From contig JASANG010000295.1 of assembly GCA_030248215.1 (NCBI GenBank), forward strand, positions 248,001-312,000: 64,000 nucleotides of DNA, written 5' to 3'. The position numbers and the translations under genes were made by a program. Origin of the DNA: Enoplolaimus lenunculus (lineage: Eukaryota). The notes below the pieces were generated by a model. The model ran no database searches, was not told the origin of the DNA, and saw only the letters and a program-made list of their open reading frames with translations. Below, one piece after another: positions 26,880-63,871 of the stretch (position 1 is its first letter; each line of letters starts with the position of its first letter).

Positions 26880-29585
26880 TCAGAGGCGGGCTACGCGGTG
26901 CAGTGGTACAGCGCGTGCTCGGAATCCTAGGGCCGGTAATTCAATCCCCGCTCTGTAGGCCTGCTTTTCCAGCTGCTTAGTTAAAAGGTCTGAAGTCCGG
27001 TTTATACCTAGACTGACATGGGGGCTACGCAGTGAGCGCAGTTATAAGTACTGCGCTTTGAACACGGTATCCAATCGAAAAAATAAGATGGATGGTCAAG
27101 GGACGACCTTGCTAAAAATTGGGGCCGTAAGCATGTGAGACATGCTTGTCCGTTTTACGCATATGTAATATGTACAGTGCAGCGCACTGTATGTATGCTA
27201 GCTAGCATCATATGGTCAACATATATGTAGTTTGCGAGAAAAGTAGTTGGAGGCGGGCTACGTATGTAGTGCAGTGATAAAACGCTTGCAACGGGATCCA
27301 AACACCGCTAGTTCAATCCTCGCTCTGTAGACTTGCTGTTCTGCTGCTAAGTTAAAAGGTCTGAAGTCCCGGTTCCTATCTGTCGAGTACTGCACGATGG
27401 ATTACCCTACCAATACACAGCGTAGTACACAGGTAAAAACAATACATAATAAATAACACAAATAGTTGAAGAAGCAGTGCCGCGGTAGATCAGTTGGTAA
27501 AAGCTTTGGCCCGGTTAGCCGAAAATTACTGGTTCGAATCCAGCCATGGTCAATTATTTCAACTACTTCACACTAACATAGCAATTACATTGCCCATAAG
27601 ACCGCGCAACCTTAATGACACTGTGTAGAGTGTGAAAATTGGTTGCCAACTTAGTGCACAACTAGAACTTACTTCTGTGGAGTCAGTATATATGCACGGT
27701 AAGTGTATGTGAAACAAAAAGAATGTAATACATGTGCGTGCACATATACCGAAATAAGAAGTTATTGCAATGACCACATGGTGTAGTGGTAGTATGCTTG
27801 GCTGGAGCGCAAGAGGGCTGAAGTTCGATTTCCGGCATGGTCCAAGCGTTGGGCAAAACATCTAACAGGGGTCGTGCAGACCGTGTCATACCAACATGAG
27901 GACCCACCGAAACGTGCACTGCAAACAGCAAGCCCATGGATTCGGGGAATTGGACTCGCGGTCCGGGACGACCGCCTGTAAAAAAGAGATGTAAGAATAT
28001 GTGCACTGTAAGTGTATGTAAAGTGAAAAGTTTGTAATACATGTACATATATACCGTTATGAAGTTGTTGCCACGACCACATGGTGTAGGGGTAACATGT
28101 TTTGCTCGAGCGTGTAAGCATGTGAGACATGCTTGTCCGTTATGTGCACATGCAATATTGTGCAGTGCAGTGTATGTATGCTAGCTGGCAGCATACAGTC
28201 GACACATATAGTCGACGAAAAATGCAGTTGGAGAGGCGGGCTGCGTGGCGCAGTGGTAGAGTGCTCGCTTAAGGATCCGTAGGCTGAGAGTTCAATCCCC
28301 GCTCAAGCATGCTTTTCCAGCTGCTTAGTAAAAGGTTTGATGTCCCAGCTCCTACCTAGAATGACATGGGGGCCACGCCGTGAGCGCAATGGTAAACTGC
28401 CGCGCTATGAACACGGTATCCAGTCGAAAATAGGAGGACGGTCAAGGGACGACCTTGTTGAAAATAAGGGCATGTAAGCATGTGAAATATGCTTGTCCGT
28501 TATGTGCACATGCAATATAGTGCAGTGCACTGTATGTATGCTAGCTGGCAGCATACGGTCGACAAATATAGTCGACGAAAAATGCAGTTGGACAGGCGGG
28601 CTACGTGGCGCAGTGGTAGAGTGCTCGCTTAAGGATCCATAGGCTGAGAGTTCGATCCCCGCTCTAGCCCGCTTTTCCAGCTGCTTGGTAGAAAGGTCTG
28701 ATGTCCCGGTTCCTACCTAGACTGACATAGGGGCCACGCCGTGATCGCAATGGCAAATTGCCGCGCTAAGAGCACGCTATCCAGTCGAAAATAGGATGGA
28801 CGGTCAAGAGACGACCTTGTGGGAAATAAGGGCATGTAAGCATGTGAGACATGCTTGTCCGTTATGTGCACATGCAATATAGTGCAGTGCAGTGTATGTA
28901 TGCTAGCTGGCAGCATACAGTCGACACATATAGTCGACGAAAAATGCAGTTGGAGAGGCGGGCTACGTGGCGCAGTGGTAGAGTGCTCGCTTAAGGATCC
29001 ATAGGCTGAGAGTTCGATCCCCGCTCTAGCCCGCTTTTCCAGCTGCTTGGTAGAAAGGTCTGATGTCCTTGGTTCCTACCTAAATTGACAGAGCGCAAGC
29101 GGGCCGAGGTTCAATTCCCGGTCTGGCCCTTAACTTTGAGCAAAACTTCTGACAAGGGTCGTGCAGAGCATGTTGTACCAACATATGATGCCTCAAAGTT
29201 CAAGAGTGAGATTTAACACTCATCATAAGACAGAAAATTTGCGTGTTACGAATGTGAGCCATGCTTGTCCTGGTGCATATACAATATATGAAATGCACAT
29301 TATATAGTATGCTTGCCGGCTGCTTACGCGACTGACAATCACCAGATATTTCGCGTATTTGATCAGTTATCAATCAACATCATTTGGTGGATGGACCGCT
29401 TTATCAGAACCGTTCCACGTGTCGGTATGTGCGTACGGTAAAGTGTATAAAGCAAAAAGATTGTCAAACATATATGCACATACACCGGAATATGAAGTTG
29501 TTGCAATGACAACGCGGTGCTGTGGTAGCATGCTTGCCTCGACTACAAGATGGCCGAGGTTCGATTCTCGGCGTGGTTCTTAACT
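26880..29585 (+). repeat. Cluster of tRNA-headed (SINE-like) tandem repeats, two interleaved families
   Basis: Family 1 heads GGGCT(A/G)CG.. at 26888, 27255, 28238, 28598, 28960 (spacing 367, 360, 362 nt) with A box TGGCGCAGTGG and B box GTTCGATCC. Family 2 heads GACCACATGGTGTAGTGG.. at about 27773, 28075, 29507, plus a partial at about 29091. Confidence 0.85.
27479..27552 (+). pseudogene. Degenerate tRNA-like sequence
   Basis: D-loop AGTTGGTA, anticodon stem TTGGC/GCCGA, T-arm CTGG-TTCGAAT-CCAG. The D-stem and U33 are non-canonical, so it is probably not a functional tRNA. Confidence 0.6.
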
Positions 29586-29856
29586 TTGGCCAAAGCTTCG
29601 AAGAACCAGTCGCGCTAATCGCTTAAACAGCATAAGTTAACTAGCTATGCCATAAAATTATATAAGCTCCGGTTTTCAAAATCTCTTAATTTACTTTTGG
29701 AAGCTCTTAATAGCATTACTCAATCCTGGGATGATTTAATATACGCATACTTTACCTATGCAAATTTTCATGATAAGCCAATAGCTTAAGCGTACTTGCT
29801 CTCTGCTTAAGTTGAATGGGAATTTTTCTAAAGGCCGTGTAAAAGAGTTTAAAAAT

Positions 29857-33422: not shown

Positions 33423-36400
33423 ATGAGCTTAATTTCCGATATCGACGCAAATTGTCCTGGTCAGCGCGTCAAGATGCAGTCATACCCATTACATAAAGCG
33501 GTTTTCGATAATGACGTTAAAGGTTTGGCCCAAGCGCTTAAAACTACCTACGTTGGCGAAACTGACTTACACGGTTAGTCTGTTATCGTGCAAGATTAGC
33601 TGCGATCGAAAATCGTCTCTGGTTTAAAATTAATTGATACGTTTATTTTCCAAGGAACTGTTAGGCTGTAGACATATCGTGTACGCTGTTATTCATTGCA
33701 AATATACATAATATACGTATTTGTTTTTAGGTAACACTGCGCTGCATTTGTCATTAATGCTTGGTCACAAAGGTGAGTAATTGCAAATGCATGTATCCTA
33801 ATAATTGGTAAACTGTCAAGTCTTTCAAAATTAAAGTAGCTTTGCATGCCCAATTATTTTTAGAAGTATTGCATTTTTAAACATGTAGGTATATTATGTG
33901 TTATATGTCAAATAAACGTTAAGCAACAAATTAGGCTCCTGTTATTTTCAAATACGAAATACCTTAATGTCTTTTATACTCTGGAAAAGATGATGTTTCC
34001 ATTCGATTTTTTGAGTTGCATTTGTTTAACAGTGTAAAAAGCTTACTTCAGAATGTACTGCGCTTTTGTTAGCACACCGAGCACCGATTAAAGTGAAAAA
34101 TTTGAATGGCTGGAGTCCATTGGCTGAAGCTGTCAGTTATGGCGACAGACAAATTCGTAAGTTGTTTATCTATATTATTCAGTAGTGGAGCTTGGATCTG
34201 GATATTATCTTTTCAATTATTCACTTGTTCGTTTGAATCAGTGAGGCAAACTTATACATTTAAATTTCGGTCGCAGACATTTTTGATTCTAACAAAAGTT
34301 TCAGGCATTCTTAATATTCGTATCTATGTGGTTTCAATATCATTTTGTTGTACTGCCTTTGTTGCAGATTAATTTTATTTGAACATTTCAGTCATATCAA
34401 TTTTGCGACATTTAAAACTTGAAGCTCGCCAGTCAATTCAAAGTCGCAAGCCGTACCTTATTCAAGCACTAACAAGTCTTGATGACTTTTCAATGGAGCT
34501 CAAATGGGATTTTCACTTCATTGGTACGAACTGAATATATCTTTTTAATAGGGATGTGCCGAATAATCTGCATCTGCACCGTTATCGGCACTTTTCGTGA
34601 GTATAGGCATTCACATCGGCATTGCACTGCAAAACAATTGCCGATTTTTGCCGATTCTTTTTGCACATAATAGTGAGTTGGAATGCTGTCAATTTCGTTT
34701 ATATATCGGGGCGTCTGATCAAGCTAACTGTTATCTCGCTTGCGTTAGTGTTTGAAAAAATTAATTGAAATGAACCGTTCTCATAAAATTATAATTTTTA
34801 TGGTTGTAAGGGATAGGTCTTCGCGTTTGTAATGATGTTCGTACGTACCGTTGTATAATATGATCATATCCGTTCTTCAAGCATCGTGCATAATTATTGG
34901 AATTGGCATCGGCATGTTTTCAAAATAAAAATAGGCAAGGGCAAAAATCGGTATAGCCACTTCCCTATTTTGCAAACAGCACTTGATGTTAACTTATGTA
35001 CGTTACGTTCGTAATATATATGTATGTATATATGGTGTGGTGCACCTTCTTTGTAATATACAGTTCAGACCTGCACTTGCATACTATTCTTCAGAAGATC
35101 ATCCGATCTTCGCATGAGTGAGCAGTAACAGAGAATATTTGATAAAAGTATACAAGCTTACAACAGTTCGAGCATGTGGTTTCTGTCATACTTTCTAGTT
35201 TATGCTTAAGTTAAATGAAAGCAAAAATATAAAAATTTTATATATGTCGGAATTCTGATTGTTAAAATGTAAAAGACGTTTGTTTCTTTAGTTCCGTTTG
35301 TATCCAATATGCTTCCATCTGATGTGTGCAAAATTTACAAGCTTGGTGCATCTCTAAGGTTAGTTGTGTATCGTTTACTTTACAATTTATGCCATAGGTT
35401 GCAAAAAATTAAATGTTGCCACAAAAGCTGACACGAGTTGACACATGAATAATTATTGCTGTTCAAAATGTTGCTCGCAAATTGTGCTTTTATTTTGCGT
35501 TGAAGAACAGTTAATATTTTCAAACTTTGGAAGTATGGAAAAATTCTAAATATAGCAGGCGACCTATATCAAGTATATATAGGGGCTTGACACCACGATA
35601 CATGGGAAAAGTGGGAGTTGGAGACTCGTTAGCCTAAGATTAACCTTATGTTTAAGCTGAGGCTTAGATTTAAGTTTATATGATTAGCAGGTAGGCCGCT
35701 ATAATTTACATGGGCCTAACAAACAAAATACTAATGGATAAAATATTTCAGAATGGACACAACCCTAGTAGATTTCAATGAAAAAGCGTGGGAGCGAGGC
35801 GATATTAGTTTTTTGTTCGATTCTAATGCAAAGGACGGAGAAGCATTAGTTATTCTTGACAATAAAGCAAAAGTTTACCAACGCATACAGTATGAGGTAG
35901 GTAAATAACAAGGGCGCAGCCAGGGGGGGTTCAGTGGTCAACCTTTCACCCGCGAGGGATTTTCATGCAGTGGTTTTTAGAAACTTTTATTTTGCAACAC
36001 CACAATTCCCTTGAAAGTTTTTATAGAACGGAACCTCTTCCAAAGTCCTGGCTACGAATGTGGGCTAACTAGGTAGAATTTTGAATTGATGATGTGTTTG
36101 TAATATTTGCCTACGAATATACTTCAATGGCTTCATATTCGACTTGCAGGAAAGCCCATTCAAACTGAACTTGTATTTGACGTTACTACCCGTTCCTTCT
36201 ATATATCGCTGTTGTTGGACAAAATCCAGACAACTAAACTAGCAGATACAAAGCAGGCGGATATTGGAGTTTATATATTACTGTAACATTGGCGCGCTGC
36301 AGAGTCATTCGCCAAAATCATTCTTGAAGTAGAAGCGTGCTAAAATATAGCATTACACGTATTTATTTTGTGCAGGAAACACGACGGCTGGGTAATTGTT

Positions 36401-39400
36401 GCTGTGATGGAAGAATAGCAAATCAGATTATTCAATTAACAGTTACATTTTTGTGTTGTTATCTATATCATTGAAGCTGGAACGACCACATGGTTTCGGT
36501 TGCGAATATTGCAAACACGTTGACAGGTACATAATTATTGACAAATTTTTCAGGAAAATGAACGTGAAGTCGAAGATGAAGTTGATATATTAATGTCAAG
36601 CGATATAGTTAACGCCCAAATGTCAACGAAACGTGTAAATTTTGTTCGTGATCAAGTCGGATGGTTTTTTAATCGGCACGATCGAAATGTAAGTATGTAT
36701 GTTTCGCAAAGAAATCCGTCAGCGTCAAGTTAAAGTATTTATTGAGCGAAGCTTGGAAATATTTGCTTTTAAATCACCAGTTAATCATTCAGGCTTATAA
36801 AGCACAAACGCATATTTTGACCGACTTACTTTGTAATTAATGTAATATGCAAATTAGTATTAGACAGTTGTAATATGAAATAACTTAAAAAAGTAGTAAT
36901 TTAGATTTAACAAAATAAATTAAACTAATATGTAATTTAGCTATTTGCTGACTATTCAGTTATCTGTTTTGCAGGTTTATAAACAACTTATTCAGATTCC
37001 TCGCACTCAAAAGCCCTTTAGTATTGAAAGTAGGTTGCTTGTAACTAGTAAATTAGTGGAATAATGTAAAAAAGGTCCTAATTCATGCTTAACCATTTTT
37101 GCAAATTAACCTATGGCTAAACTACCGGCTTTAAAATTTTACCGCAGAATAATAAGCTTTGAAATAAAAAATATCAAAATCATTTCAGTGGTTCCTGAGA
37201 TCCACGTCGGACGGACCGACGGAGGGATATCCACCTTTCAATCCCCAAGTACAAAACGTAAAACGCTTCATTTAACTTATAGCTCCGCTCAATATGTTGT
37301 TTATTATTTTTCTAATTTCAACAGTTTTAGGAGTATGTGGGCGATCAGTATGCTGAATTCTATAGAGTGGAAGGCTTGGAACTGGTGTCCCGTAAACGGT
37401 AAGCAAGCACTACAAAAACTATTTCTTTCTATACTCAATTGTTGAATGAGAATAAATTATATTATAACCTTAATAAAATTATTTGGTTGTCATTCAGTTA
37501 GCTACCTAGAAAATGTCTGGCACAAGTAATATTATTCGTTGGAGCCAGCATAAATTTTGGAAATTATCTGTTTTTTTTTCAAAATTCCCCTTGAGTGTGA
37601 ATTTTCAAATTACTTTTTGAATGAAGCGTTGCAAATTTAGGCGTGAACACTTGTCGGCAGATGATGTGGCAAAGAACAAATCCATGCTACAGAGTATTCA
37701 AAATGGAGAGATAATGGTCGGTGACCTCGTAAGTTTTAGCAGTTACCAACACAAGTAATCAATCTATCATCTAGTAATAACTGTTTATGAAACATGTCCG
37801 TATGTCTAGCAGGGTGTAACCGGAATTCGGTTGCCAACCAAGTTTCGGTTCCGATTACGCAATGAATCGGAATCGGAATTTTGAAGTTTTAATTTCTGAT
37901 ACGTTGCATGAAAATTTTTTATCTGTTAAATTGCTTTCGACGAGCTAACATGTCAATAATTGATTGTAGTTTAGCTTTCCAGAACCAAAAATCGGCAGTC
38001 TGTTCATGCGACGTTATTGAAAATGATTGCCAGCCAAGAGATACGCTAAATCAATAGTATATTTTGTTCCTACAAATTGTTCGTACAGTTACAAAAATTA
38101 CTAGTTCCGATTACGATGCTGGTATAATCCAGTTCCGGGTTGCACACTGGTGTCTAGAGTTTAATTAATAAGCTAGTTTTAGCCATTGAATGATAGAAGG
38201 ACAGTTAAATGGTAACCATTGGCGGTTATGCCGCTGCTTCATATTTTGATATATTATCTCAAAATTCTGCAAGTGAGTAGGAATTTGAAATGTTTATCAT
38301 AATTTATGTCTGTGCTAATAATTTTTAAGGTGTCAGCTTTTGTATTGAAATAAAAAACATTTCCAACAATTAGAGAATATAAAATAATATCTCAGTATTA
38401 ACTTTGATACCAATAAAACAATAATCCGATTGAATCACTGGTTTTTTTTTGGGAACTGTGTTTAGACTTCCTACACCATTCCGTACTGTCAATTTATATT
38501 TGAAATCAAATCCGAATTTAAGGTAAAATTCTACACTGGTTTCTTTTTAGAATTCTGGTTAATCATTGCCATTTTAGCTCGCTCGACGCAAATCCATTGC
38601 TCCTCCGCCGAAGAACAAAATTTCTTTTGCCACTTACTTGGATTCGGAACCAGGGGACTGGCCAGACATTGGTCGTAAACAAATAGTCAAACGAAGTGTC
38701 AAAAAGTTTAGTCCTAAAGTTGCTATGGTGAGTGGAGTGCGTGTTCGATTGAGAATGCTTATGCCTGCACCATTGGCGTAGATTGACGGAATCTATTGCC
38801 AAAGTAACTTGCTGGTTGGGTTGACTCAGGCAACTAAGAACTTGAAATGTAACGCAGTAAATAGCGTTCATACCGGTCGAGGCATTCTGTGTAGGAAGTT
38901 TTAACCTTTTCACCAGTATAGTTTTTGCAAAAAACACTTTGAAATAAACCATAACGTACATTGACGAGTTTGCAGCAAGATAACTGTTATCGGTTGAATT
39001 AATTTAGAGTATTAAATTAACATTTCAAAACGTATTTATATTACCGTTTCGTACATTACTTTTTCCAGAGTCAAGAATTTCCCCTTACCGTGTTACAGTA
39101 AGTTTCACAATTTCAATTAATTTGTAACTAACTGGATTCTTAGTGTTTTACGTGAGGTGGTCGTTGTTGGTTGAGCGCGATTACTGGCTCAGACCGGGTA
39201 TCTAAGTATAAATTTGCACCAAGTTTGCCACTTCGCGTTTCGCAAAGTTTTTATAGTATGATTGTATTCTTTTCCGATATATCCTTTTAGTATAACGGGA
39301 GTAGTAAGTACTATCGACCGATAGTGAACATTTTATAAGTAGTGTTAGGCGTAGGCAGTAAGAAAAGCGATATACCAAAACCAATCAAATGGTTTAACCT

Positions 39401-40151
39401 CAAGGTTTTCACAATAAAAATTGCCCTATTTTCTGTCACCACATTACTTAAATTTGATTTTGCTTCTTATGATTTTAGGCTAGTAAACATTTTGGAAATT
39501 ATTGCGCCGTTCAAAAATATCAAGAAACTAAGAGAGTTTTGCGAATGCAAGCTTCCGCCTGGTTTCCCAGTTAAAGTTGGTAAGTACGATACGTATCAAA
39601 CATTTTGGCAGGTAGCAGTGTGTGGTTGCAAAATTATTACTAATATGTACCTACTTGCGTATATCTAGTTTTTGACCTATAAGAGAATATTATTTGCTTC
39701 TATAGAGCAACTAAAGGTTTGCCATATTTTGGTCCTTAAGTTGAAACGAAATCTAAGAGCATAATTTTTCGAATGATTTGCCTGCCGCGTCTACACAATA
39801 TCACTCATAATCGAAATTTCTTTTACAGCAGCACTCACATAACATTATAATATATATGGTCGGAATTGCTTCAGCAATTTTAACAGTCGAAGATTAACGC
39901 ATTGCAGAATTGCAATAATACTGTTGCCTTTTTCGAAAAAATGGAAGTTCAAGAAAGCATATTATGTTACACATTACACATTTCATTTTTCAAAGTGCAC
40001 GCTTGGCATGCTTTCAGAAATCCCGTTGTTTTTAACGATCTCTGCGATAATAACGTTTCAAAACTTCAAAACCTCCCCTGATATCAAACCGAGTTTGTTT
40101 AAAATTCCAAAGAACTACCGCGAAGACAACAAAAGGTTTCCTGATTTATGA
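33423..40151 (+). CDS. ANKRD13C: Ankyrin repeat domain-containing protein 13C (GPCR-chaperone domain), 448 aa
   Basis: 13 exons: 33423-33573, 33731-33772, 34052-34156, 34392-34523, 35292-35358, 35752-35896, 36554-36688, 37331-37398, 37641-37728, 38578-38727, 39069-39097, 39479-39579, 40018-40151 (1347 nt). Motifs YPLHKAVF, GNTALHLSLMLG, GWSPLAEAVSYGDRQ, LPSDVCKIYK, EDEVDILMSSDI, KLPPGFPVK and C-terminal RFPDL*. Confidence 0.95.
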
Positions 40152-40426
40152 CTATCTGGGTAAGTTTAGTCGCCATAGTAAGGTTTTTCGCGCTCAGTAT
40201 ATGTCAGTGGTGCTTTCCCCTTTACTAAACATATTTTGATTGTTTGGTGATTGTACCAAAAAAGACATTGTAAATCAGGTTTCTGTGGAGTTCTAGTTTT
40301 CTTTGAAAAAATTACATCGCCGTTGGTTCTCATCTTGGATTTTGCGCCGGATTTTGACCTTCTTGATATATGTTTTGAAACAGCTAGGTCCAATTTTGTT
40401 TTAGACTCGGTGCGCTTTCGGATTGG

Positions 40427-42313
40427 ATGTCTTCAACTAACATTGTACCATCTACACGGGTTAATGCTTATTCAAAATGTCAACAGTGTGCAACAGGTAA
40501 CAAAAATTCTCACGTAATGTCAAAATATGAACAAAACACAGCATCACAACGCTCTTTTGGTTTACATAAGCGGCATAATTATTTGCACTGTGGTCTTTCG
40601 CACCATTTAAAGCTGAGCAAAAACGGTACAAAGTTGCGAAACTTGCGTGAAGATTCGGGTTCGGACGTAATCGGTGTGCCGGACAATGTTGGTGGCTCAA
40701 TCCCAAAATCATGTTCGCTTTTTAGTTTTTTTTCTAATGGCATGGTAGGATTGCCTGAAAAACGGGTGTTGTCGAAAATCAGGCGTAAAAAGTCTGTTTC
40801 CGAATCCGCGAGTCATACTCAACCTGGAAAAGACAATTTTGCTGATAGTTACTTTGCAACTTGTATGAATGATAGTGAAGTCAATGGTAATATACACTGT
40901 GACGACAGGGGCCAGCAACATTTTTCTGGTCAGGATCGGGAGCAAGTTTCCAATGTATCGAAACTCTGTGATGCCTTAAAAACCTCTGCGCGCACATATG
41001 AAGCATTAGAAACAGCATCTAGCTTGAAATCCAGAGAAAATAATTTTAACAGAAAATATTGTCGAACGAGCTTTGATGATAATATTGCAAATAATTTGCT
41101 ATGCAAATTGTCAAAATCGGGACCAACATCTAGTAATTATAGTACAGTGTCTACTATAAATAATGATCTTGATATCTACTTAACTACTTATGGTTGTAAC
41201 TCCTTATCGATGAATTCTGCTTTGAACCGTTCTTTCCGTTCCGAAGTTGAAGTAGTGTTAATCAGGACTGAGGAAATGTTTCCTGGATCATTGCGCTCTG
41301 GTAGTTTTGGAAAAACTTTGCTAAGCAATGGGTATAGTAAAAATTCGCGAGTGCATATCTTGGAAAAATCTAATCGAATCGATATTTGGTCAAAACGGAT
41401 TCAACATCAAAGTACTGTTCACGATGGAGCCCAAAAGCTTGACTGGGACGCTGCTTTTCATGTTTGTTACCACAGTGCGGCAGCTGAAAATTTTATAGAG
41501 TCAAAGAAAAGTTGGCAGAGCCAAACTGATTGCATTGAACTACCTACTACTGGGAGATTATTGGTAGATAATACGATCGCAATAAGCTGGCTTCTGATTC
41601 CGAGCAGGGTTGAAAGGCCTTTGAAATTATCTGAAATTATTTCATATCGGTCGTTGTTGGATTACTTAGATACTGAAACAAATGTCTTTCGTAGCACATC
41701 CTCGAACGATTATCATACCCCTTTGTTAACTGCGGACTCAGATGTATTTTACATGAGGTTATGGACGAACTCACTGTCACTAAACGCGTTTTCGTTCATT
41801 ATTTTTTCACAGCTATATGCAGAATATTGGAACACAAAAAATGACACTGCTACAAATATTGCGGACCGATGTTTCTCAGGTATTTATGCAATAATGAATC
41901 GTAGTGCTTCCGAACAATATCAAGACCGTGAGGTAAAGCGGCTGCTACCCAGTGCACCAATATTGAGGTCTAACTTTGACGCAAGTACCCGTAAGATAGC
42001 CGATGTGATCAGTTGGATTAAAAGACCTAGCCCATTTTCAAGCGGATTGAGCTCTGATGTTGCTCATTTAACTGATGGTAGCGAAGAGTCACACTGGAGC
42101 CAACTAAATGAAGAGTTACTATTAAATCCGGATGGTGGTAGTTTGTTTGGTACGAAGAATGATAAACTGGTTTCGTCTCAAGACGAAACGGATGATACAG
42201 AGGTTAGATGTCAGTGTGAATGTATTCGAACTGAAAGTATTGTTGTGGTGCTACCGCTGAACGGTGCTGGACCGTATACAACCGCTGACGATGTATGTAT
42301 TGTTTTTGAATGA
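40427..42313 (+). CDS. Uncharacterised intronless 628-aa ORF; possible readthrough extension of ANKRD13C or second cistron
   Basis: A 1887-nt open frame is very unlikely by chance in AT-rich DNA. It is preceded by a strong acceptor (caattttgttttag| 40404). Ser/Asn-rich N-terminal half and a more hydrophobic central part. No family recognised. Confidence 0.7.
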   Translation: MSSTNIVPSTRVNAYSKCQQCATGNKNSHVMSKYEQNTASQRSFGLHKRHNYLHCGLSHHLKLSKNGTKLRNLREDSGSDVIGVPDNVGGSIPKSCSLFSFFSNGMVGLPEKRVLSKIRRKKSVSESASHTQPGKDNFADSYFATCMNDSEVNGNIHCDDRGQQHFSGQDREQVSNVSKLCDALKTSARTYEALETASSLKSRENNFNRKYCRTSFDDNIANNLLCKLSKSGPTSSNYSTVSTINNDLDIYLTTYGCNSLSMNSALNRSFRSEVEVVLIRTEEMFPGSLRSGSFGKTLLSNGYSKNSRVHILEKSNRIDIWSKRIQHQSTVHDGAQKLDWDAAFHVCYHSAAAENFIESKKSWQSQTDCIELPTTGRLLVDNTIAISWLLIPSRVERPLKLSEIISYRSLLDYLDTETNVFRSTSSNDYHTPLLTADSDVFYMRLWTNSLSLNAFSFIIFSQLYAEYWNTKNDTATNIADRCFSGIYAIMNRSASEQYQDREVKRLLPSAPILRSNFDASTRKIADVISWIKRPSPFSSGLSSDVAHLTDGSEESHWSQLNEELLLNPDGGSLFGTKNDKLVSSQDETDDTEVRCQCECIRTESIVVVLPLNGAGPYTTADDVCIVFE

Positions 42314-44180
42314 ATGAAACTTGTGATTAATAAGTTAAATAGTTTATTGATTAAAACTGCGTTAAGTATACGCCTGGCCTGAGTTAATTACGTCCACAAA
42401 CAGAAAGCGTTTTAAAACCTTTGTTGGAGTTTTGGAGCACGGTTTTAAGTTAACTAATTGTAGTATGAGTTAATAGTATCACTAAAACGTTCTCTGCTGT
42501 AGTACTTTTAACATTGTGTTAGAATATGCAAACCTTCGGGGTAGAATGAAAGGTGGAAACAAGAATCAACTTTTTAAGCAATCATTTCTGGCCAGAACTA
42601 TACTGTGTGATTTGCTGTTGTCGATAACCACGTAATACTCCGGTGACTCTATCGCATTAATGATTAACAGTGTGAACTATTAATTCTGATACATTGATGT
42701 AGCAAATATATCACATTGTTTTTCGTATGTATGTATTATAAGCCAGGTGTTATGTTTTTCTTAGAGTATTTGTATTATTTTTGTCAATAATATTGGTATG
42801 CAGTATGTAGATAGCAGTAGAGAATTAAGGACGACAAATTTCGTTTTTAAGATGTAAATCACAACACACCAAATCGCATCTAAACATTCTCCAGATGCCT
42901 CATTTTGATATCTATCAATGTACGCGTCTGTTTAGCGGTCAGTATGCATAACTTTCATATGATACTTGAACATTTTTTAGCTAAAACGTAAAAAAACTTG
43001 AGATCGTTAATAGAAAATGATCAATTTGATATTTGAAATACCTTTGCTCGTTAGATGATAAAACTCTACTATGTCGATTGATATGAGTTTCTGCGAAGAA
43101 AATGGGACACATGTGTGCTTGATTCCCGTACAAACTTAATTTTTGTTTTTCAGTGGTTTTGTTTATGAACTGTCAGGATTGTGACTGTGGTTTAAGGAAC
43201 TTTTAAATATTAACTATATAGGACTGCATTGCAGGATTAAACGGATAGTAAAAATAATGCATATGGAAGCTGATAGCGATCAAAACAACGGAAAGAAAAC
43301 GAATATTGAAGTAAAAAATACATGGATATTCACACAATATAATTGATGTATGCAAATATTCACTGTGTTTATTAAAATTTTATGGAAAAATAGCGGATGC
43401 TCCATATTATTTAAGATTTTGGATGAATTTGTCATTTTTATTTCATATTGAACAATTGAATCATATCTGTATGAGTAATTATGAGCGATTTATACTTAAT
43501 CTAGAAGTAATTTTGAGCATAAAGGGAATTATCTGGTATTTCTGTAAGAAAAACGGACACCCTATTTTTAAAGGATTCGGATATCCTGTTACACCTAGCC
43601 AGCAGGGTGCAACCGGAATTCCGGTTGCAGTAAATTTGTTTCGGAATTAAAAATTTCGGTATTAAAATTTGGTCGGTGGAAATTAACATACTTTGCTATA
43701 AAATGACGATAAAGAGTAATTTCATTAGTATAGTATACAAACCTTGACAATCGCCAAAAATACATCGAAGGTAGAGTTCGCTTCCGTGGATTATGAAATC
43801 TAAATACTGCGGATACAGTGAATACCTATCTCCAACTAGGGTTATTTCACCAATAATATTGCAAAAAAGAAAATTAAAACGATTTTTTCAGTGTTTCAAA
43901 TTTCGGTTCCGGTAAATTGTAATTCCGGTTGCACGCTGTCTGCCAGGGATGGGCGGTCTCGATCAAAAAAGCGAGACCGAGATAAATACTTTCCGAGATT
44001 TTCGGTCTCGGTCGCAGTCAATTTTTAACCGTTATCGAAAATTAATACAAATAAGATTTTTGAAACAAAGTTTAAGTTTTGAATATTTTTATTTGTTCTG
44101 AATTCCCGTTTCAAACAAAGTAATAAATTGCCGCCAAACTATTTTTTACTTTATTTTTAACATGGCTACTGTCCCTATAC

Positions 44181-44512
44181 CCTTCGAACAGGCTCGGAAC
44201 AAAACCCACTGTGTCAAAACACACTCGTTGCAATCCCTAATTCAAAGCTATCGTGTTGTGTTTGATCCAGTGCAAACCGAATAAACTGGAGAGTTTTTTG
44301 ACATAGTGTAGACGTTATAAATGCGGATGACTCAAAATGTTAAACGTGTCCCTATAACCTTCGAACAGGCTCGGAACAAAACCCACTGTCTGAAAACACA
44401 CTCGTTACAATCCCTAATTCAAAGCTATCGTGTTGTGTTTTATCCAAGGCAAACCGAATAAACTGGAGAATTTTTTGACATAGCGTAGACGTTATAAATG
44501 CGGATGACTCAT
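44181..44512. repeat. Tandem duplication, period 177 bp
   Basis: CCTTCGAACAGGCTCGGAACAAAACCCACTGT.. at 44181 and 44358. Confidence 0.9.
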
Positions 44513-56200: not shown

Positions 56201-59200
56201 TGAATGACTCACAAATTCTATTCACACTGTAGACTTTTTAATTGTATTAATATAGCTTGGTTTTACGCATGGTCCAGGCTCTTACAATTAACAATTAAAC
56301 ATTACGGCTGTGAATAGAAAATAGACAACTTACTTGCATCACATCGGCAGAATGTGTACTGGTATGATATGAATTTTCATGGTTATGATAGTTATCTTCG
56401 ATCACCGAACACCAGTTAAACCAAAGCTCGTCAGCGTTTTGAGGTGGTATTTGTAAAATTTCACTCAACTTAAATCGACGAGCAATTTCGACTCCGACTA
56501 CGCGCAGCACACGTCCTTTGCTCATCGCTCGTTCAATAGCAAAAATATCAAATGTCCACTCGCAAATTTGACTCAATTTTGCCTCAATTTGGTCACTTGT
56601 TAAAATATCACTGCCCGCTGGGCTGGGCACGGCTTGAACGCTCCGCTTGTTAGACGTCGCTGGCAATTGGTTGGCTCCATCGGCGCATTGAGAATCAAGC
56701 AATTCTTGAAACGACGGCGAGCGAGTTCGAATTAGAGTATTTGCTTTTTTTGAATGGATGCGTCCCGAGACTGGATCAATTTCAAGTCTATTCGCATCAC
56801 CTCCGCTACTTGGCGATATAGCACAACGTTCGACTAAATCTGGATTTGCTATTCGTGACGATAATTCTGGACTGTGTACCGTTGAATACGGACTCGCCGA
56901 CCCGTGTTGGACGTAAAATCGGAAAATGTCTTTCGACGTTTCACTTTCGCGTTCTGGAAGGCGTGGGAGTGTCTGCAAACGAAAACCATATATACATATA
57001 ATGTGTTCTGAAACATCTATATCTGGCTTCTCCACAGCTTGAAAATTTCCGCCGGGGGGCGTTTCCTGGGCCCCTCAGGAGTTTCCTGGTGGGCAGCTAA
57101 TTTTGCTGGGGGCAGTTTTCCTGGTGGGGGCAGATGATCTGGGGGGTCCTGGGGGGCAGGCTTAAAATTTTGCAAGCCGAGTTTTTGGACCATTTTTTTC
57201 TTCTAGATCGTGTTTCCAACAACTCATCGCTCAACATGACAAAAATTCCCCGCAAACGCTAATAACAATAATTTTAACTAATATTACTGACAATTTTACC
57301 AGAAGTTGAAAGAAGCACAATTATATAAAATATAGATAATCTATAATTGAAACTGTGATTAACATATATTTTATATATTAGTCACAGCTTCAGTTTATCA
57401 TAAGGCTCAGGCGGGTTGAACTTGTTGCTGCAAGGTACTTTCGTATGCTGTATGCCCTGAAACGGTCTTTATATAATTGTGCTTTTTTCAGTTCATTATT
57501 GAATTGTACTAGTTACTACCGGTATTTGTAACGCTGTTAAAAAATTATGAGTACTCAGCGTAATATAAAATCACATTTTGCCGAAGGCAAAAATAGTCCA
57601 GGTCTTTATATTTTAACATTGAAAATTTTTGGCTTAGAAAAGTCCTGGGGGCCCCCAGCAAAAAAATTTGCTGGGGGGCGGCCGAAAATTCGCCGGGGGG
57701 CCTTTACGGGGGGCGGCAAAATTTTCGCCGGGGGGAATGAAACTTTCGAAAAGTGCTGGGGGGACCCCCCGCTGTGGAGAAGCCAGTATATTTCCCAGTT
57801 GCCTTCTGGATTGTAATTACCGCCACTGCTCCGAGGCTAGCATCTGCCCGCCCTCTAGGAACGTCTTCCTGAAATCTGCCCTTCTAACCCTTCAGATGCT
57901 ATAAGTATTGAATATATAATACTAGTTGAAAGTTAATGTTTGACAGGATATATATGATTGGACTATTTGTGCCGAAAACAAGACCTCTGTGGCCGACATT
58001 GGGGCCTTACTGAATAAAAAAGGCTCCACTGGACCAGGTGGTACGTCAGTGACTCATTCGAAGCGTCCATTAAATCTTACAACAAATATAGAAACATGTA
58101 AAAATAAAACATGTTGTTTGTTGCAACAGTATTATAGCTTGACACTTTATTGTGTAATGCTGGTAGTTTTATAGAGTGTCCTGCACTATAATTGATATTT
58201 AGACAGTCCACTTGCCAAATGTGACAAATAGTTGCTTATGATACCACAGGTCGCTAAACATAATAGTGTTCAAAATTTCCTTGCGATAACTTTCATAAAT
58301 AGTCTAATTTACAATGGGCCATTTCTGAGCTAATGGTAGTGTAAATATCAATCTCCCTGAGTTGATTTAATCCGGCATTGCAATTTAGAGTGAGTTAGTT
58401 GACTTTTTGTCGATTTTTGCCAGAAACATGGGAAACTTAGGTTGAAAAAAACGGTCCATGCAAAGATCACGGGCGGAACGTTTTTCTGAATGACTGCAAT
58501 AGAGTAAGCTTAAGCTTTAGACTAAATTTCTTCCTTGGCTTCGGCTTAGGTTTACGCTTAGGCTTAGGAATATGCTCATTCTTACGCATAGGCTTAGGCT
58601 TAGGCTTTGGAATATGCATATAGTACTGTTCCGCCACTGTTATTTACATTGGCCAAAAAACGCATACTTAAAATATTTTAAAGCCAAAACTTTGGTACCT
58701 TATACAAGTCCATAGAAGTTAGCATTTTAATAACTTCATCGAGTACTGAAGTTGCAATTGAATTTGAGGCGCATTCGTTTTGAACAATGTGTAGCAAATC
58801 TAACACACGTTGTATTGGCGGTTCCATTCGACGTAACAAAGGGTGTAACGCTTTTCGCGTTTCTGAATGACCGGACGATGACGATGCCATAGCTACAAAA
58901 ATTGATTTTTAGACCGATGCGTCAAAGGTCCTTAGCACATTTTGGTCCGTGTACTTTTAGGATCGGACCGTTGTTCCGCAAAACTGCAATGGAGTAAGCT
59001 TATTAAGCTTTAGACTAATTTCTTTGGTTAAGCTTAGACTTACGAACATGTTTATACTCTTGTTATATCCATAATCTACATATGAGCCCAGATTTCCTAC
59101 GAAATTACTTGTGTTTCTGTTCTGAATTACAATTTTGTTTAATTTAATTGTATCTATACTTTTGATATTTCTATGGTCAGGGTGGTAATTTTTTGCTATT

Positions 59201-62200
59201 TGGCAGATTGGGTGCAGTGTTCGCCGCCTATCACCGCCCTTTCAAGTTGTACTTGCAGCAGAGTGCATAGAGCTCAAGGCACAGGTCTCGTAAACATTAC
59301 GGCCCATATCTTAATTAGCTGTGATTTTATTTCTATATATTGTTCAGATTTGGTTAGTACTACTTTTGTATCAACGTGTGCGCTACACAGAAATGGGCAA
59401 AAAGCTAGTTTAAAGTGACACATAGATCAACAGTGCACTGAACGCCTAAAACCTACAATTTCATTTTTTTCCAATCGTTTGTTTCAAGAGGTGCGCACGA
59501 CTGGCAGGCGTGCCACATAAACCGGGTTTTTCTTAAATAGCGCAATGCACAAACTTGTCGGAGTGACTTACAAAATCTATGAGTTTGGGGCGAATTGTAG
59601 AATTAAGTTGAGCAGATTAGGTCCTTAAAGGTTGAAAAACCCTGAACCAAGAGTTTGCTTACATGCTGTTGAGCGTGAATATTTAGCACCAGATTTTGTT
59701 GCAGTGATCGGTGACCGGACGTGGACCAGCTGTGATACACTTGAGTCTTCATATGGTTGAGCAACTGGCAGTAGCTTCCACGCGACAAATTCTTCGTGCG
59801 ATCGATATTTGCGCAGATTTGCTGTTGACCGCGATACTAGTGATGTGCTTTGAGTTCCGCGAAGGTTGGACCCTACACAAAAGTAGCAAACATGTTGTAT
59901 ACTAGCTACCCAGTGAATCCATCATTCTTAGACTAAGCAAATGCGATTACATATCTAATTAATTGGGTAAACATCCATAACAAGGCCCATATTCTCAAAT
60001 GTGCCTATAGCAACTATCACCAATTAGCGATAGTTTTTCAAACTGAACAAACTGCTGCAACTGTGGATGGCAAGATTGGTATAAAAATATAGGACAAGTC
60101 AAATGCAAAAAATGTGCTGAATTTCGAACCTCACCATTCACTAGTTCGAAAGTTACAAAACCGAGCATCAGCTGGTAATAGGTTCTATACGCCTGTGAGA
60201 CAGGCCCAGAGCGTAGATAATGTATACTTCAACAAGAATACTCAATTTGGAACATTATGTGTGCAAAAGAATGTACACGGCACTCGTTGTGTTTTTGGCC
60301 TACCCCCTCCTCTATTTGGACGTGGAACAACCTGTGCGAACCATGACTCTTTATGTACCCGGCATCAAACTTGCTCCGCTTAATTTAATTTAAGGTTATT
60401 GCATAAGACAGCGGCCCCCTTTGAAAAAAGGGAATCGGCTAAAAACGAAACGTCCGCTGGTACATTTTGTACCACGCGGAACTCCAAGTGTTGCACATTC
60501 TTGTATCATGCACTTTTGGTGTTATATACTGGTAATCAAAAAATCAGTGGACTTACTACTTTGACAGTCGTATTCGCCTTCGTTTCTGTGCGGTTGATGG
60601 TCCAAATGACTATGGTTTGAACGTGTGTATGTTGATACCCGCGAAAGATAGCTTGGATCAGAAGCTTTGCCCAATAACTGAAAAACAAAATGTAGTTATG
60701 CCTCAATAATACGATTTGTGCTCACCGGATACGTTCTCTAGCTCAGATAGCTGCTTCACTCACCTCGGAACAAACTGAAACACACAACGCTATTTCGGCA
60801 ATATATGACAACATGTAAAAAACAAACCAATCTTCCATTATATATGTTTATATATATATATCAGAGTGCAACCGGAGGTCTGCGTTGGCTCCAGCAAAAA
60901 ATTTACTTCCGGCTCCTATAGAATTTATGCCGGAGGTTTCGGCGATTTCGGTAGTAAAATTTTGCAAAGTTTTACAACATTTATTTGTTTGGCGCGTTTC
61001 CTTTCAACTTTTGGCACAATTCTGAGAGAAAATTGCCGAAGTTTCGAAAAAAAATAAGCGTAATGCCATACGATTTACGGATACATACTGTTGTGACCCA
61101 AATAAGAGGTGGGACTGAAATTTATTTGGCCTCTCCAGATGGTACCCCCCCCTTCGTATTCGGTTACGGACTGTTATTTATTTTCAACCCACGCTCCGCC
61201 GCTCTTCGTTACAGATATATATCTGGTACTGCAATTATCCATTGAATTAAACGTTTATTTGTCTTGTGTCAATAGCTTGAGCGATAATACAAGGTTATAC
61301 TTAGGAATGTACTTTCAAAATTTAAGTACGCTTTAAAGTTTCGAACTCAAATTATTTGGTCATGGAGTTATTTAGGCGCTACAATTTCGGGTTAATTGAC
61401 ATTTATGGACTCTAATTAAGGTTTAGGGACTGTATCCGCTCACGGACTCTTATTAGGGATGCAGACTCCTATTGGTTCGGACTCAAAATGGAGACTTCCC
61501 CCCTCTCATTACCCTCCTCTTATTCCGGTCAATACAGTAGTAGATTATTTGTTAAAATTAACAAATTAAACATTACTTGAAGTACCTAATTTCGCGTCAC
61601 CCGAGCTTCACATCCGTCACCGACTCCGGCAAGTTTTGTTAACTTCCGGCTCCGGCGCCGGTACTTTTCACCTCCGGTTGCACTCTGATGTATATATAAT
61701 ATTTTTAAGCAATAGTGATATTTGAGTAAAATCTTTCAAGCCACTTTTATTTTACAAAAAAGTTTACAGGCTTGTTTTGGTGTAATCGAAACAAAAGCAA
61801 AATTGTGATATATGAAATAATTGTGAGCAAATCTTCTTTATTAGCAAAATATTATATTTTAATTTGGAAAAATGTCTTATTAATCTGATATTGTAACGTC
61901 AAAACTAAAGTAAGGCCAAATTATTACCGAATACTTCGTAAACATAGGCTTGACTACTTTAGATGGTGAAAACCACTTATGATGCATACAAAAGCAATAA
62001 TACCTTACTTCGTTACGGTGTCTTCCCGATACTCGTTCATATGCACGATTAACAAATTGGATTTGCCGATTGCCGTCTGTAATTTCGATGGCTTGCCGGC
62101 AATGAGCATCCAATGCTGCCAATGGACCTTTACAACCGCGGAGTTTTAAATTTAAACAAATTTCACTCGCTTCAATAGAGTCAATATCTACGAGCAAATC

Positions 62201-63871
62201 CGCAGTGGTTTCATAACGTTTCGCAATCAAAATACGATTAAAACCAGCTGACAGCAATCGAGCAATCGGTGAACACGTGGCGACACTAGGTTGGAAAGAA
62301 TCTGACCAGGATTTGAGTTGATTTGAAGAAATAACCGCAGCCAGTGTAACAAATTCACCTTCAGGACGAGATCGAATTTTATTGGCTAACTGCACACAAC
62401 GATCGACCGATGATAACGGTTTTGCTGTCGCCGAGTCTTCATTTTCATTGGCCAGCTCGCATTGCGGCATTGGAATTAGTGGATTTGCAGCTGTTGCGTT
62501 ACAGTCGACAAATATTAGACTTGCTGATTGCTTTTTCAGATTACACAAAAGCTCTGAGTCAGTATGAGCACGATGTAAGCTCCAGTGTTGGCGTTGGCTA
62601 AATGCTTGAGCTAGTAATGTTGAAAATCGGCTTGGTAATGCACAGTTCTTAACGCTGGTATGGGACGAAGCCGATTTGACAGGAGCTAAACTTCCCAGCG
62701 ACCCAGTTTCGCACGAGGCTGTTGTTGAATTTATTTTTTCGGTTCCATGAAATGCTGGACTGTAATGCCCGCTGCCAAAACGTGAAGTTTTCTGCGTGTC
62801 AGCAATAGTAATCACCAAAGCACGGTGATGTTTTGGTCGTTGGAGCAATAGCGGTCCGTAGCGCATTTGAGACTTTGACGTTGTTACCGTAGGTGCTGTC
62901 ACACATTGATGATGATAATGGGAATGTCGGTGAGAAGTACTAGAGCATGGTTCACTGTGTCTGTTGGTGCATATAGTTGGCGATTTGTGTGGCGTACATT
63001 GCTGTCCGGCCGTTCGACATCTTGCGGACCCCATTGGGGTTTTGGGGGAACCTACTGAAGGGGATCCAGACGTCGAAGGACTATTGGTATCGTAAGCGAG
63101 GCGCCCGTGATATTCGGCAAGATGGCACGAGCGCGTTGGCAAGCGCTCGCTAAGGGAGCTCGTCATAAGGTGGTGCTTGCTACCGCTAGGTGCAGGACTT
63201 GGAAATTGCTTGCTTTGCTGCAGTTTATCTCGTTGGTTAGATCCATATGATGATAAGGTGGTGGTTGTACATTTAGCCAGATTCGTTGTGGCTTTTAGCA
63301 ATTTTGGCAATTGGCTTGACAAATTTTTAGGGCTGGCATTTTGTTTTTGTTGGGACTTCGGAGGGCACTTTTGGCCGCGATCAAGGCCAATATAAGCTGA
63401 TGTCACAGGTCCACGTTGAGTTCGGTTTGCTCTAGTTGGTGCGTCTTGAGCAGTTTGACTTGTGCGGTCCGGGTTTGTTGATCGGACGGCGCGTGCTCCA
63501 GTGGACCCGAACTGCTGATTAACACTGTCTTTATTAATTTTGCGGCAAATTTTTAGTCGTTGTTCAATACTCGATGACGAAGTTTCTTCTGTTGCCCTAG
63601 TCTCAGCAGAATTCTGACCCGTTTTAGGTGAATTGATTTGCCGAGAAGTACCACTACACGCTAATGTTTCACGTTGCTGAATGACGGTTTCTGGGCTGGA
63701 ATTTCGCTTCCTTTGCGGTGGCGGGTTTGGTGAGCGTAACAATGAGAAAAACGGTATCCGGCAGATGTTAATACTTCGCGCAGTTGAACGATTGCTTGAG
63801 GTAGGTATTAATTGTTGATTATGCTGTGTTAATGAGTTAGATGCAGTGTGTTTAGTTCGCGCTTGGCGCAT
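50278..63871 (-). CDS. PDE8: Class I cyclic nucleotide phosphodiesterase of the PDE8 type (REC-like, PAS, catalytic)
   Basis: Exons 63871-62009, 60677-60557, 59872-59663, 58892-58699, 56972-56334, 55315-55144, 52999-52845, 52484-52329, 51897-51778, 50526-50278. REC-like LLSAGFNR; PAS AIEITD..IQFVNRAYERVSG..ELLGK; MEPPIQRVLDLL; catalytic YHTSTHSADV, IHDCDHPGRN, LYNDTSVLENHH, ATDMSQHF, KAADISNPAR and the invariant Gln in PETQ. The ATG is directly preceded by AG, so upstream exons may exist beyond the window. Confidence 0.92.
50652..51090. mobile_element. MITE with TACTGT...ACAGTA ends (free copy of the element nested at 61086-61539)
   Basis: Termini TACTGTAGTGACCCGAATAAGAGG / CTCTCATTCGAGCCCATACAGTA; the internal sequence matches 61086-61539 in opposite orientation. 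Confidence 0.75.
52137..52310. mobile_element. MITE with internal (CCTAAG)n repeats (representative copy)
   Basis: 19-bp TIR TGTATAGAACAGGGCCGGA / TCCGGCCCTGTTCTATACA. Related copies at about 1291-1453, 10610-10680, 20690-20870, 45896-46063, 58457-58652 and others. Confidence 0.8.
54338..54418 (+). pseudogene. Degenerate tRNA-like fragment in a PDE8 intron
   Basis: GCCGAGTGGATAAGGCG D-arm, TGGC-CTGTCAA-GCCG anticodon-like hairpin and a decayed TTCGAAT. Confidence 0.45.
55961..56150. mobile_element. Short MITE (PIF/Harbinger-like termini)
   Basis: Perfect 14-bp TIR GGGTGGCGCTATAC / GTATAGCGCCACCC with TTT on both sides and internal GACGG repeats. Confidence 0.7.
57023..57786. mobile_element. 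Non-autonomous DNA transposon with G-rich subtermini
   Basis: Perfect 16-bp TIR CTGGCTTCTCCACAGC / GCTGTGGAGAAGCCAG with TATAT on both sides. About 400 bp of the interior recurs nearly identically at about 32419-32840. Confidence 0.8.
60862..61687. mobile_element. CAG(G/A)GTGCAACCGG-TIR MITE carrying a nested second MITE (61086-61539)
   Basis: TIR CAGAGTGCAACCGGAGG / CCTCCGGTTGCACTCTG in TA-rich flanks. Relatives at about 37810-38150, 43602-43938, 45498-45843, 46150-46361, 51330-51655. Confidence 0.8.

Follow-up and report, generated by a model that had tools for sequence, protein, structure and literature searches.

We analyzed a 64,000-nucleotide (nt) stretch of Enoplolaimus lenunculus DNA (contig JASANG010000295.1, positions 248,001 to 312,000 of the forward strand; hereafter the window), in which the stop codon of an ANKRD13C gene is followed by a 628-amino acid (aa) open reading frame (ORF). 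A preliminary description had proposed that splicing places this ORF in frame with ANKRD13C and that ribosomes reading through the stop codon produce a fusion of the two. The ANKRD13C gene was modeled from ATG 33423, the next in-frame ATG being the other possible start, and its 448-aa product aligns end to end with proteins named ANKRD13C at 47-57% identity. With its ankyrin repeats and an ANKRD13_C domain ending in RFPDL (the last exon gives a weak PF11904 match in Pfam, E 0.0026), the protein belongs among the ANKRD13C orthologues. On re-reading, RFPDL is followed by TGA (40149-51), then by CTA TCT GG and GTAAGT (40160-65), exactly as described, and the ANKRD13C frame therefore ends in TGA-CTA, an instance of the leaky UGA-C context associated with programmed readthrough.

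The GTAAGT sequence would open a T-rich intron similar to the other 12 ANKRD13C introns (157-849 nt). Using splice-site matrices built from the gene's own 12 introns, with true sites scored leave-one-out, we obtained 7.7 bits for the donor at 40160 (true donors 1.2-11.0), the top GT site in 40018-40404, and 6.7 bits for the acceptor AG at 40403-04 (true acceptors -1.8 to 8.3), the top site in 40170-40700. A downstream stretch of 13,601 nt holds seven equally good donors; the chance of finding one is roughly 0.6% within 12 nt of the stop and roughly 12% within the 253-nt gap between stop and acceptor. Among the 13 AG dinucleotides in 40170-40520, only the one ending at 40404 opens a long reading frame, of 638 aa compared with 86 aa for the runner-up, and joining 40159 to 40405 gives a 1087-aa model in which codon 449 is the sole internal stop. 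The matrix scores, the frame survey and the rebuilt model thus bear out the earlier claims of a strong donor, of 40404 as the best downstream acceptor, and of a spliced frame in phase with the 628-aa ORF and interrupted by the TGA alone; unspliced RNA does run into a stop four codons past the TGA (GGG TAA). The 50-nt rule of nonsense-mediated decay, under which an intron this close to a stop would be tolerated, is mammalian and may not apply to this animal.

Beyond the acceptor, the frame stays open for 638 codons, an event with a chance probability of ~5e-20 given the base composition; the other two frames contain 36 and 70 stops. The 628-aa ORF is rich in serine and asparagine (88 S and 45 N of 628 residues), and its codon-position bias is weak and patchy (0.035 bits/codon in frame vs -0.004 and -0.179). 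A Pfam scan of the ORF returned 0 families, and no homologues were found among 5718 candidates at E<=0.001 (only lengths 345-1099 compared) or among 1.84 billion representatives. The exact sequence is absent from a 15-billion collection, matches in the ESM Atlas included none at a usable level, and a search by the last ANKRD13C exon for longer forms of this protein gave 0 of 5 candidates. Other large Ser/Thr/Asn-rich frames lie on the minus strand of the window, at 61883-63871, 56298-57074, 7646-8524 and 6447-7229 (663, 259, 293 and 261 aa, no Pfam match), and this genome seems to be rich in big low-complexity exons; the end of the 56298-57074 frame resembles a cyclic-nucleotide phosphodiesterase exon.

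Table 1. Positions of the features in the window
Feature	Position	Strand	Basis or remark
ANKRD13C coding region	33423..40151	+	13 exons, 448 aa, all introns GT-AG, no internal stop
ANKRD13C exons 1-7	33423-33573, 33731-33772, 34052-34156, 34392-34523, 35292-35358, 35752-35896, 36554-36688	+	
ANKRD13C exons 8-13	37331-37398, 37641-37728, 38578-38727, 39069-39097, 39479-39579, 40018-40151	+	
AAG|GTTTCC before the stop, a weak alternative donor	40133..40141	+	Same phase as the 40160 donor; -2.6 bits, below all 12 true donors
First stop TGA-CTA, leaky context	40149..40154	+	TGA itself at 40149-51, directly after RFPDL
Eight exonic nt after TGA, CTA TCT GG	40152..40159	+	L-S-first two nt of G
Predicted phase-2 intron, GTAAGT...TTTTAG	40160..40404	+	245 nt; splice-site scores, predicted from sequence
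Last exon (22-nt linker and 628-aa ORF; 638-aa extension in total)	40405..42313	+	Sequence and frame; Ser/Asn-rich
C-terminal ~22 residues of the ORF, like the family end motif	42245..42310	+	End-anchored tests, weakly significant
ATTAAA, candidate poly(A) signal	42350..42355	+	37 nt past the second stop; motif match only
Operon-like trio: DUF5522 (C1orf53-like, stop 23341-43), mitochondrial-type uL14 (stop about 22474), DUF1232/RING (RNF170-like)	23748-18379	-	

To see whether the stop context is shared by relatives, we searched metagenome contigs for a pattern that covers the final 14 ANKRD13C codons and does not demand a stop. The scan gave 44 loci, of which 25 were confirmed as ANKRD13C by tblastn; the 19 unconfirmed loci were set aside as non-ANKRD13. 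Merging near-copies left 22 groups (21 by protein, as L037 repeats the extension of L001). In 13 of the 22, the stop is followed in frame by a peptide with a related start of 12-15 residues and a related end motif of ~22 residues (D/E-h-P-h-x-(F)-N-F/L-G ... h-x-h-F), between which lies a middle of anywhere from zero to about 290 residues; uninterrupted extensions measure 47, 47, 50, 78, 84, 151, 164, 272 and 323 aa. All 13 motif-bearing groups, each a distant relative of the window gene, have TGA as the stop, and 12 have TGA-C, vs four and two of the nine motif-less groups (Fisher p 0.0015, uncorrected for kinship); one motif-less group, L010, has only 99 nt of flank. In these distant relatives, the orthologue comparison called for by the preliminary description came out in favor of a conserved TGA-C followed by an extension, and of an intron after the TGA in one relative (L032, below), but not of a conserved linker, for which the window sequence did not match the family.

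Codon changes in these extensions are of the kind expected for translated sequence. Between L016 and L035, the 47 post-stop codons differ by 17 synonymous and 2 nonsynonymous changes, and nucleotide identity is 121/141 in the extension vs 50/90 past the second stop. Synonymous changes outnumber nonsynonymous ones in 8/8 end-motif pairs and 3/4 start-motif pairs. Together these counts show protein-level purifying selection on the post-TGA extension in relatives. L003, L042/L037 and L036 are intron-free, with coding sequence, TGA and extension in one continuous frame, and the 47-aa extension of L016 has its sole Met five residues from the end; with continuous frames at the former and no usable ATG in the latter, a second gene cannot explain these loci. 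Introns do occur inside the extension at several genomic loci. In L032, a 60-nt GT-AG intron carrying an in-frame TAA begins 12 nt after the TGA, and its removal yields the same peptide that L001 has uninterrupted, the layout seen in the window.

The motif-bearing loci fall into two clusters in the tree (ultrafast bootstrap, UFBoot, 83 and 78), with deep branches poorly supported; a second tree places L036 outside the supported set formed by insects, L003 and L042. Pfam searches of six relative extensions gave nothing at threshold, and an AlphaFold2 model of the L003 readthrough form (25-row alignment) was uninformative, with a mean predicted local distance difference test (pLDDT) score of 51 and values below 30 in the extension. 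The idea that the end motif duplicates the last hairpin of ANKRD13C was dropped: the best hhalign match covered 5 columns, 2/60 shuffles scored as high, and the best sites were inconsistent. L023 was likewise rejected as a sense-codon fusion; it has TCA at the stop position (2993, minus strand), with a stop seven codons on and no motif. L021 (stop position 947, minus strand) combines a vertebrate-like ANKRD13C end with TGA-C; its in-frame tail has 10 codons and lacks the motif. Separately, in the hymenopteran isoforms P0005, P0008-P0010, P0023, P0031, P0034 and P0038, a conserved alternative last exon of ~19 aa replaces RFPDL, a second route to variation at the ANKRD13C C-terminus.

The relatives also bear on how the TGA might be passed. 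A long protein could arise without readthrough if the stop were bypassed, either by use of the donor at 40135 or by skipping from exon 11, which has phase 2, straight to 40405. The reading frame at 40405 is kept in both cases, and hymenopteran ANKRD13C isoform ends show a choice of last exons at the corresponding Arg codon. Yet the 40135 donor scores below every true donor of the gene, and among relatives conservation begins at the codon directly after the TGA, the TGA stands in frame at intron-free loci and no shared acceptor after the stop was seen; we regard such a bypass as improbable. Decoding of the UGA as selenocysteine, or an ORF that is a decaying untranslated relic, is more doubtful still, to the point that we give it little weight. 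In favor of these readings, TGA is the stop of every extension-bearing locus, and the weak and patchy codon-position bias of the ORF could be read as decay. Against this, Rfam models (not SECISearch) gave no selenocysteine insertion sequence (SECIS) family match at the gathering score in 10 relative loci and no match at E<=5 in 39900-44500 of the window, the preference for C at position +4 is a readthrough trait, and 638 open codons speak against decay. A 3´ stimulatory RNA structure, an optional feature of programmed readthrough, was found neither in 60-120 nt of spliced window sequence (z-scores -0.07 to +1.18) nor in 12 extension-bearing relatives (z-scores -1.5 to +1.7).

Given the extensions in relatives, we compared both ends of the window extension with the family motifs. 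The ORF ends in VLPLNGAGPYTTADDVCIVFE, in which the spacing from P to the terminal F equals that of the L001-type motif. An end-anchored score of 17.9 against the motif set was reached by 5/2000 shuffles and by 2/1364 six-frame ORF ends, the window ORF included, and under the same motif-set scoring the ORF end ranked 2/611 among the windows inside the ORF. With a position-specific scoring matrix (PSSM), 3/1500 shuffles and 12/1228 ORF ends did as well; the ORF end ranked first of 639 end positions in the ORF with a composition-corrected background, and its score of -1.5 lies within the range of true members scored under the other cluster's profile (-2.8 to 8.0). Among plus-strand ORF ends downstream of the stop it ranked 2/183. 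Overall, the end-anchored tests are modestly positive, with p about 0.002-0.01, which suggests that the ORF end is homologous to the end of the family extension.

Several observations weigh against this relationship and against the readthrough reading of the window as a whole. The end-motif resemblance was spotted by eye before it was tested, and with a BLOSUM background the end of the ORF scores below two stretches inside it. When a local hidden Markov model of the end motif was run over 95,566 six-frame residues, the ORF was not among its matches at E<=10, and hhalign of the ORF against the motif found no match, with 83/100 shuffled ORFs scoring as high. The linker LSGLGALSDWM does not match the family start motif (1009/2000 shuffles as good; rank 130 of 167 acceptor choices). 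At 638 aa, the window extension is twice as long as the longest among relatives (323 aa). The searches gave no close orthologue of the window ANKRD13C, the nearest ANKRD13C being ~56% identical, and no motif-bearing locus groups with it. P0045, a 1003-aa protein from a named nematode, was rejected as a natural long form, its tail being unlike the ORF (best E 0.58) and without the motif; it appears to be a merged gene model running into an unrelated neighbor. Coding-type change between the two stops, then, is clear in relatives, whereas the window ORF offers a weak match to the end motif and none at the linker. In a separate observation, P0002 is a 448-aa ANKRD13C on a 4155-nt contig with about 2.8 kb left beside the coding sequence.

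The same region can be read as two genes. In that reading, the ORF belongs to a fast-evolving gene of its own with ATG 40427 as its start, and this gene is either a downstream operon member trans-spliced at 40404 or the second cistron of a cis-spliced dicistronic mRNA; the TGA-C would be an ancestral leftover, the frame match a 1-in-3 chance, and 40160..40404 would hold the 3´ untranslated region (UTR) and the intercistronic region. The window ANKRD13C has a long branch and falls close to named nematode proteins (UFBoot 94), and for nematode operons intercistronic distances of 50-200 bp plus a short UTR are reported (PMC7668243), a spacing compatible with the 253 nt from stop to acceptor and the ATG 22 nt later. 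The TTTTAG acceptor, with the ATG at that distance, likewise has the T-rich form and spacing of spliced leader 2 (SL2)-type sites. Elsewhere in the window, on the minus strand, DUF5522, uL14 and DUF1232 (RNF170-like) genes stand head to tail like an operon, with a T7CCTAG acceptor just 92 nt after the first stop. The linker is unlike the family's post-stop motif, and an ESM Atlas entry runs from ATG 40427 and equals the 628-aa product letter for letter (model pLDDT 0.27), although this shows only that some caller predicted it.

Other evidence points the other way. In C. elegans outron experiments, an upstream donor captures the acceptor for cis-splicing, and the top-scoring donor 8 nt after the window stop would be expected to take the acceptor in cis; in the comparator operon-like pair, the stop is followed by no such donor. 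AATAAA and ATTAAA are absent from the gap between stop and acceptor (before 40405), and the Ur motif TAYYTT is absent from 40300-40404, weak evidence as these signals are degenerate; ACTAAA occurs once in 40160..40404, at 40224, and an ATTAAA lies past the ORF. The context of ATG 40427 is weak (TGG-ATG-T), the ORF end resembles the family extension motif, and the extension is present in 12 of the 14 TGA-C orthologue groups. On balance we think a separate gene unlikely, though it deserves to be kept in view ahead of the bypass and selenocysteine readings.

We therefore favor splice-dependent readthrough, with the window as an extreme case of an ANKRD13C extension: it is probable, on the sequence evidence above, that a 1087-aa isoform is made beside the 448-aa protein. 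The 245-nt predicted intron beginning 8 nt past the TGA would be spliced out, and ribosomes reading through the TGA would then produce the predicted 1087-aa isoform. In UGA readthrough, a near-cognate tRNA supplies Trp, Arg or Cys, and such a tRNA would decode the TGA here, where no SECIS and no 3´ stem-loop were found. The ORF may descend from the family extension, its middle having grown to about 600 mostly disordered residues and its N-terminal motif having been lost. The extension's likely role would be to provide some of the ANKRD13C molecules with a short, conserved C-terminal segment for binding, held on a long flexible linker.

The levels of this proposal differ in strength. For the gene family, the conserved TGA-C, the coding-type substitutions, the terminal motifs, the L032 intron and the fly candidate CG5742 (below) strongly support readthrough, and readthrough of ANKRD13C, which looks old and widespread, is very likely conserved in many invertebrates. 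For the window genome, we infer both splice and readthrough; the earlier claim of a long readthrough isoform thus stands at the level of the family through stop context, motifs and substitutions, while at the window itself the linker is unmatched and the ORF end matches weakly. The claim of a fusion to an orphan ORF holds insofar as the frame is long, real and lacking homologues, but we prefer to see in the ORF a family extension that has expanded hugely, rather than an unrelated orphan gene joined to ANKRD13C. That ANKRD13C represents one of the oldest programmed readthrough events in animals, gated by splicing in several lineages and with the ORF here as a swollen tail, is a broader proposition on which we are evenly divided. 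We hold the same even balance on the proposed span of UGA-C and extension across both arthropod-like and non-arthropod lineages.

Further features of the window lie outside these questions. Downstream of the ORF, 44150-44510 contains two ~180-nt tandem copies. A cluster of repeated units with tRNA-like segments occupies 27100-29600 (resembling a short interspersed nuclear element or a degenerate tRNA array), with three near-identical ~370-nt copies at 28080-29070.

Published surveys report abundant readthrough in insects and crustaceans and use "ancient" for events shared by fly and mosquito. Tail motifs common to far more distant animals would, if the family reading is true, push one readthrough event much deeper. 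A conserved end motif in tails of 47 to 638 residues would be a short, testable functional element, and, if the window ORF is such a tail, some annotated orphan genes behind UGA-C stops would be readthrough tails. As an intron can directly follow the stop, genome-only screens that extend the second ORF unspliced, like the Anopheles screen with its unannotated UTRs, would miss such cases. ANKRD13C has been described as a chaperone-like factor in the export and degradation of a G protein-coupled receptor, DP1 (PMC3677937), and a regulated long isoform could alter receptor quality control.

We take the Drosophila melanogaster gene CG5742 to be, probably, the ANKRD13C orthologue. From the Anopheles interval, an intron is to be expected 16 nt before the stop ends, and insect ANKRD13C isoform ends imply the same position; this shared intron position indirectly supports the assignment. 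An intron-split second ORF in Anopheles was considered and dropped, since the link includes a 90-nt prologue that places the intron before the stop. CG5742 is an ankyrin-repeat protein (PMC1929063), and CG5742-PC (FBgn0034304) is listed as a readthrough candidate with a 42-aa UGA extension in FlyBase File S5 (PMC4528330) and as a TGA-C candidate in Data S1 of Jungreis 2016, where the Anopheles orthologue AGAP009954 is classed as non-readthrough (PMC5100048). ANKRD13C readthrough or its motifs appeared in no title or abstract of the literature searched, a collection that lacked most subscription papers. Readthrough of the gene is thus already on record as a candidate in the fly, and the version in the window is most likely an extreme one that depends on splicing.

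Compared by stop and length alone, CG5742 and the window gene share a TGA-C stop and an in-frame extension in what is probably the same gene; the fly extension, however, comprises 42 codons on one exon and that of the window 638 codons behind an intron. FlyBase readthrough extensions range from 4 to over 1000 aa (PMC4528330). Like the UGA-C readthrough genes of insects and crustaceans, with long cases such as headcase and kelch, the window combines UGA-C, no SECIS and a long low-complexity tail with conserved islands. Its tail, however, depends on a splice 8 nt past the stop, and the animal does not appear to belong to Pancrustacea, the group outside which readthrough was found to be rare (Jungreis 2011/2016). 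The occurrence of ANKRD13C extension motifs in two distant animal clusters is deeper than the fly-mosquito "ancient" class. Nematode SL2-type operons (PMC7668243) resemble the window in having a same-strand pair with a few hundred bases from the first stop to a T-rich AG near an ATG; unlike them, the window lacks the Ur motif and a canonical poly(A) signal in the gap and has a strong 5´ splice site after the upstream stop, with frames that are continuous once spliced.

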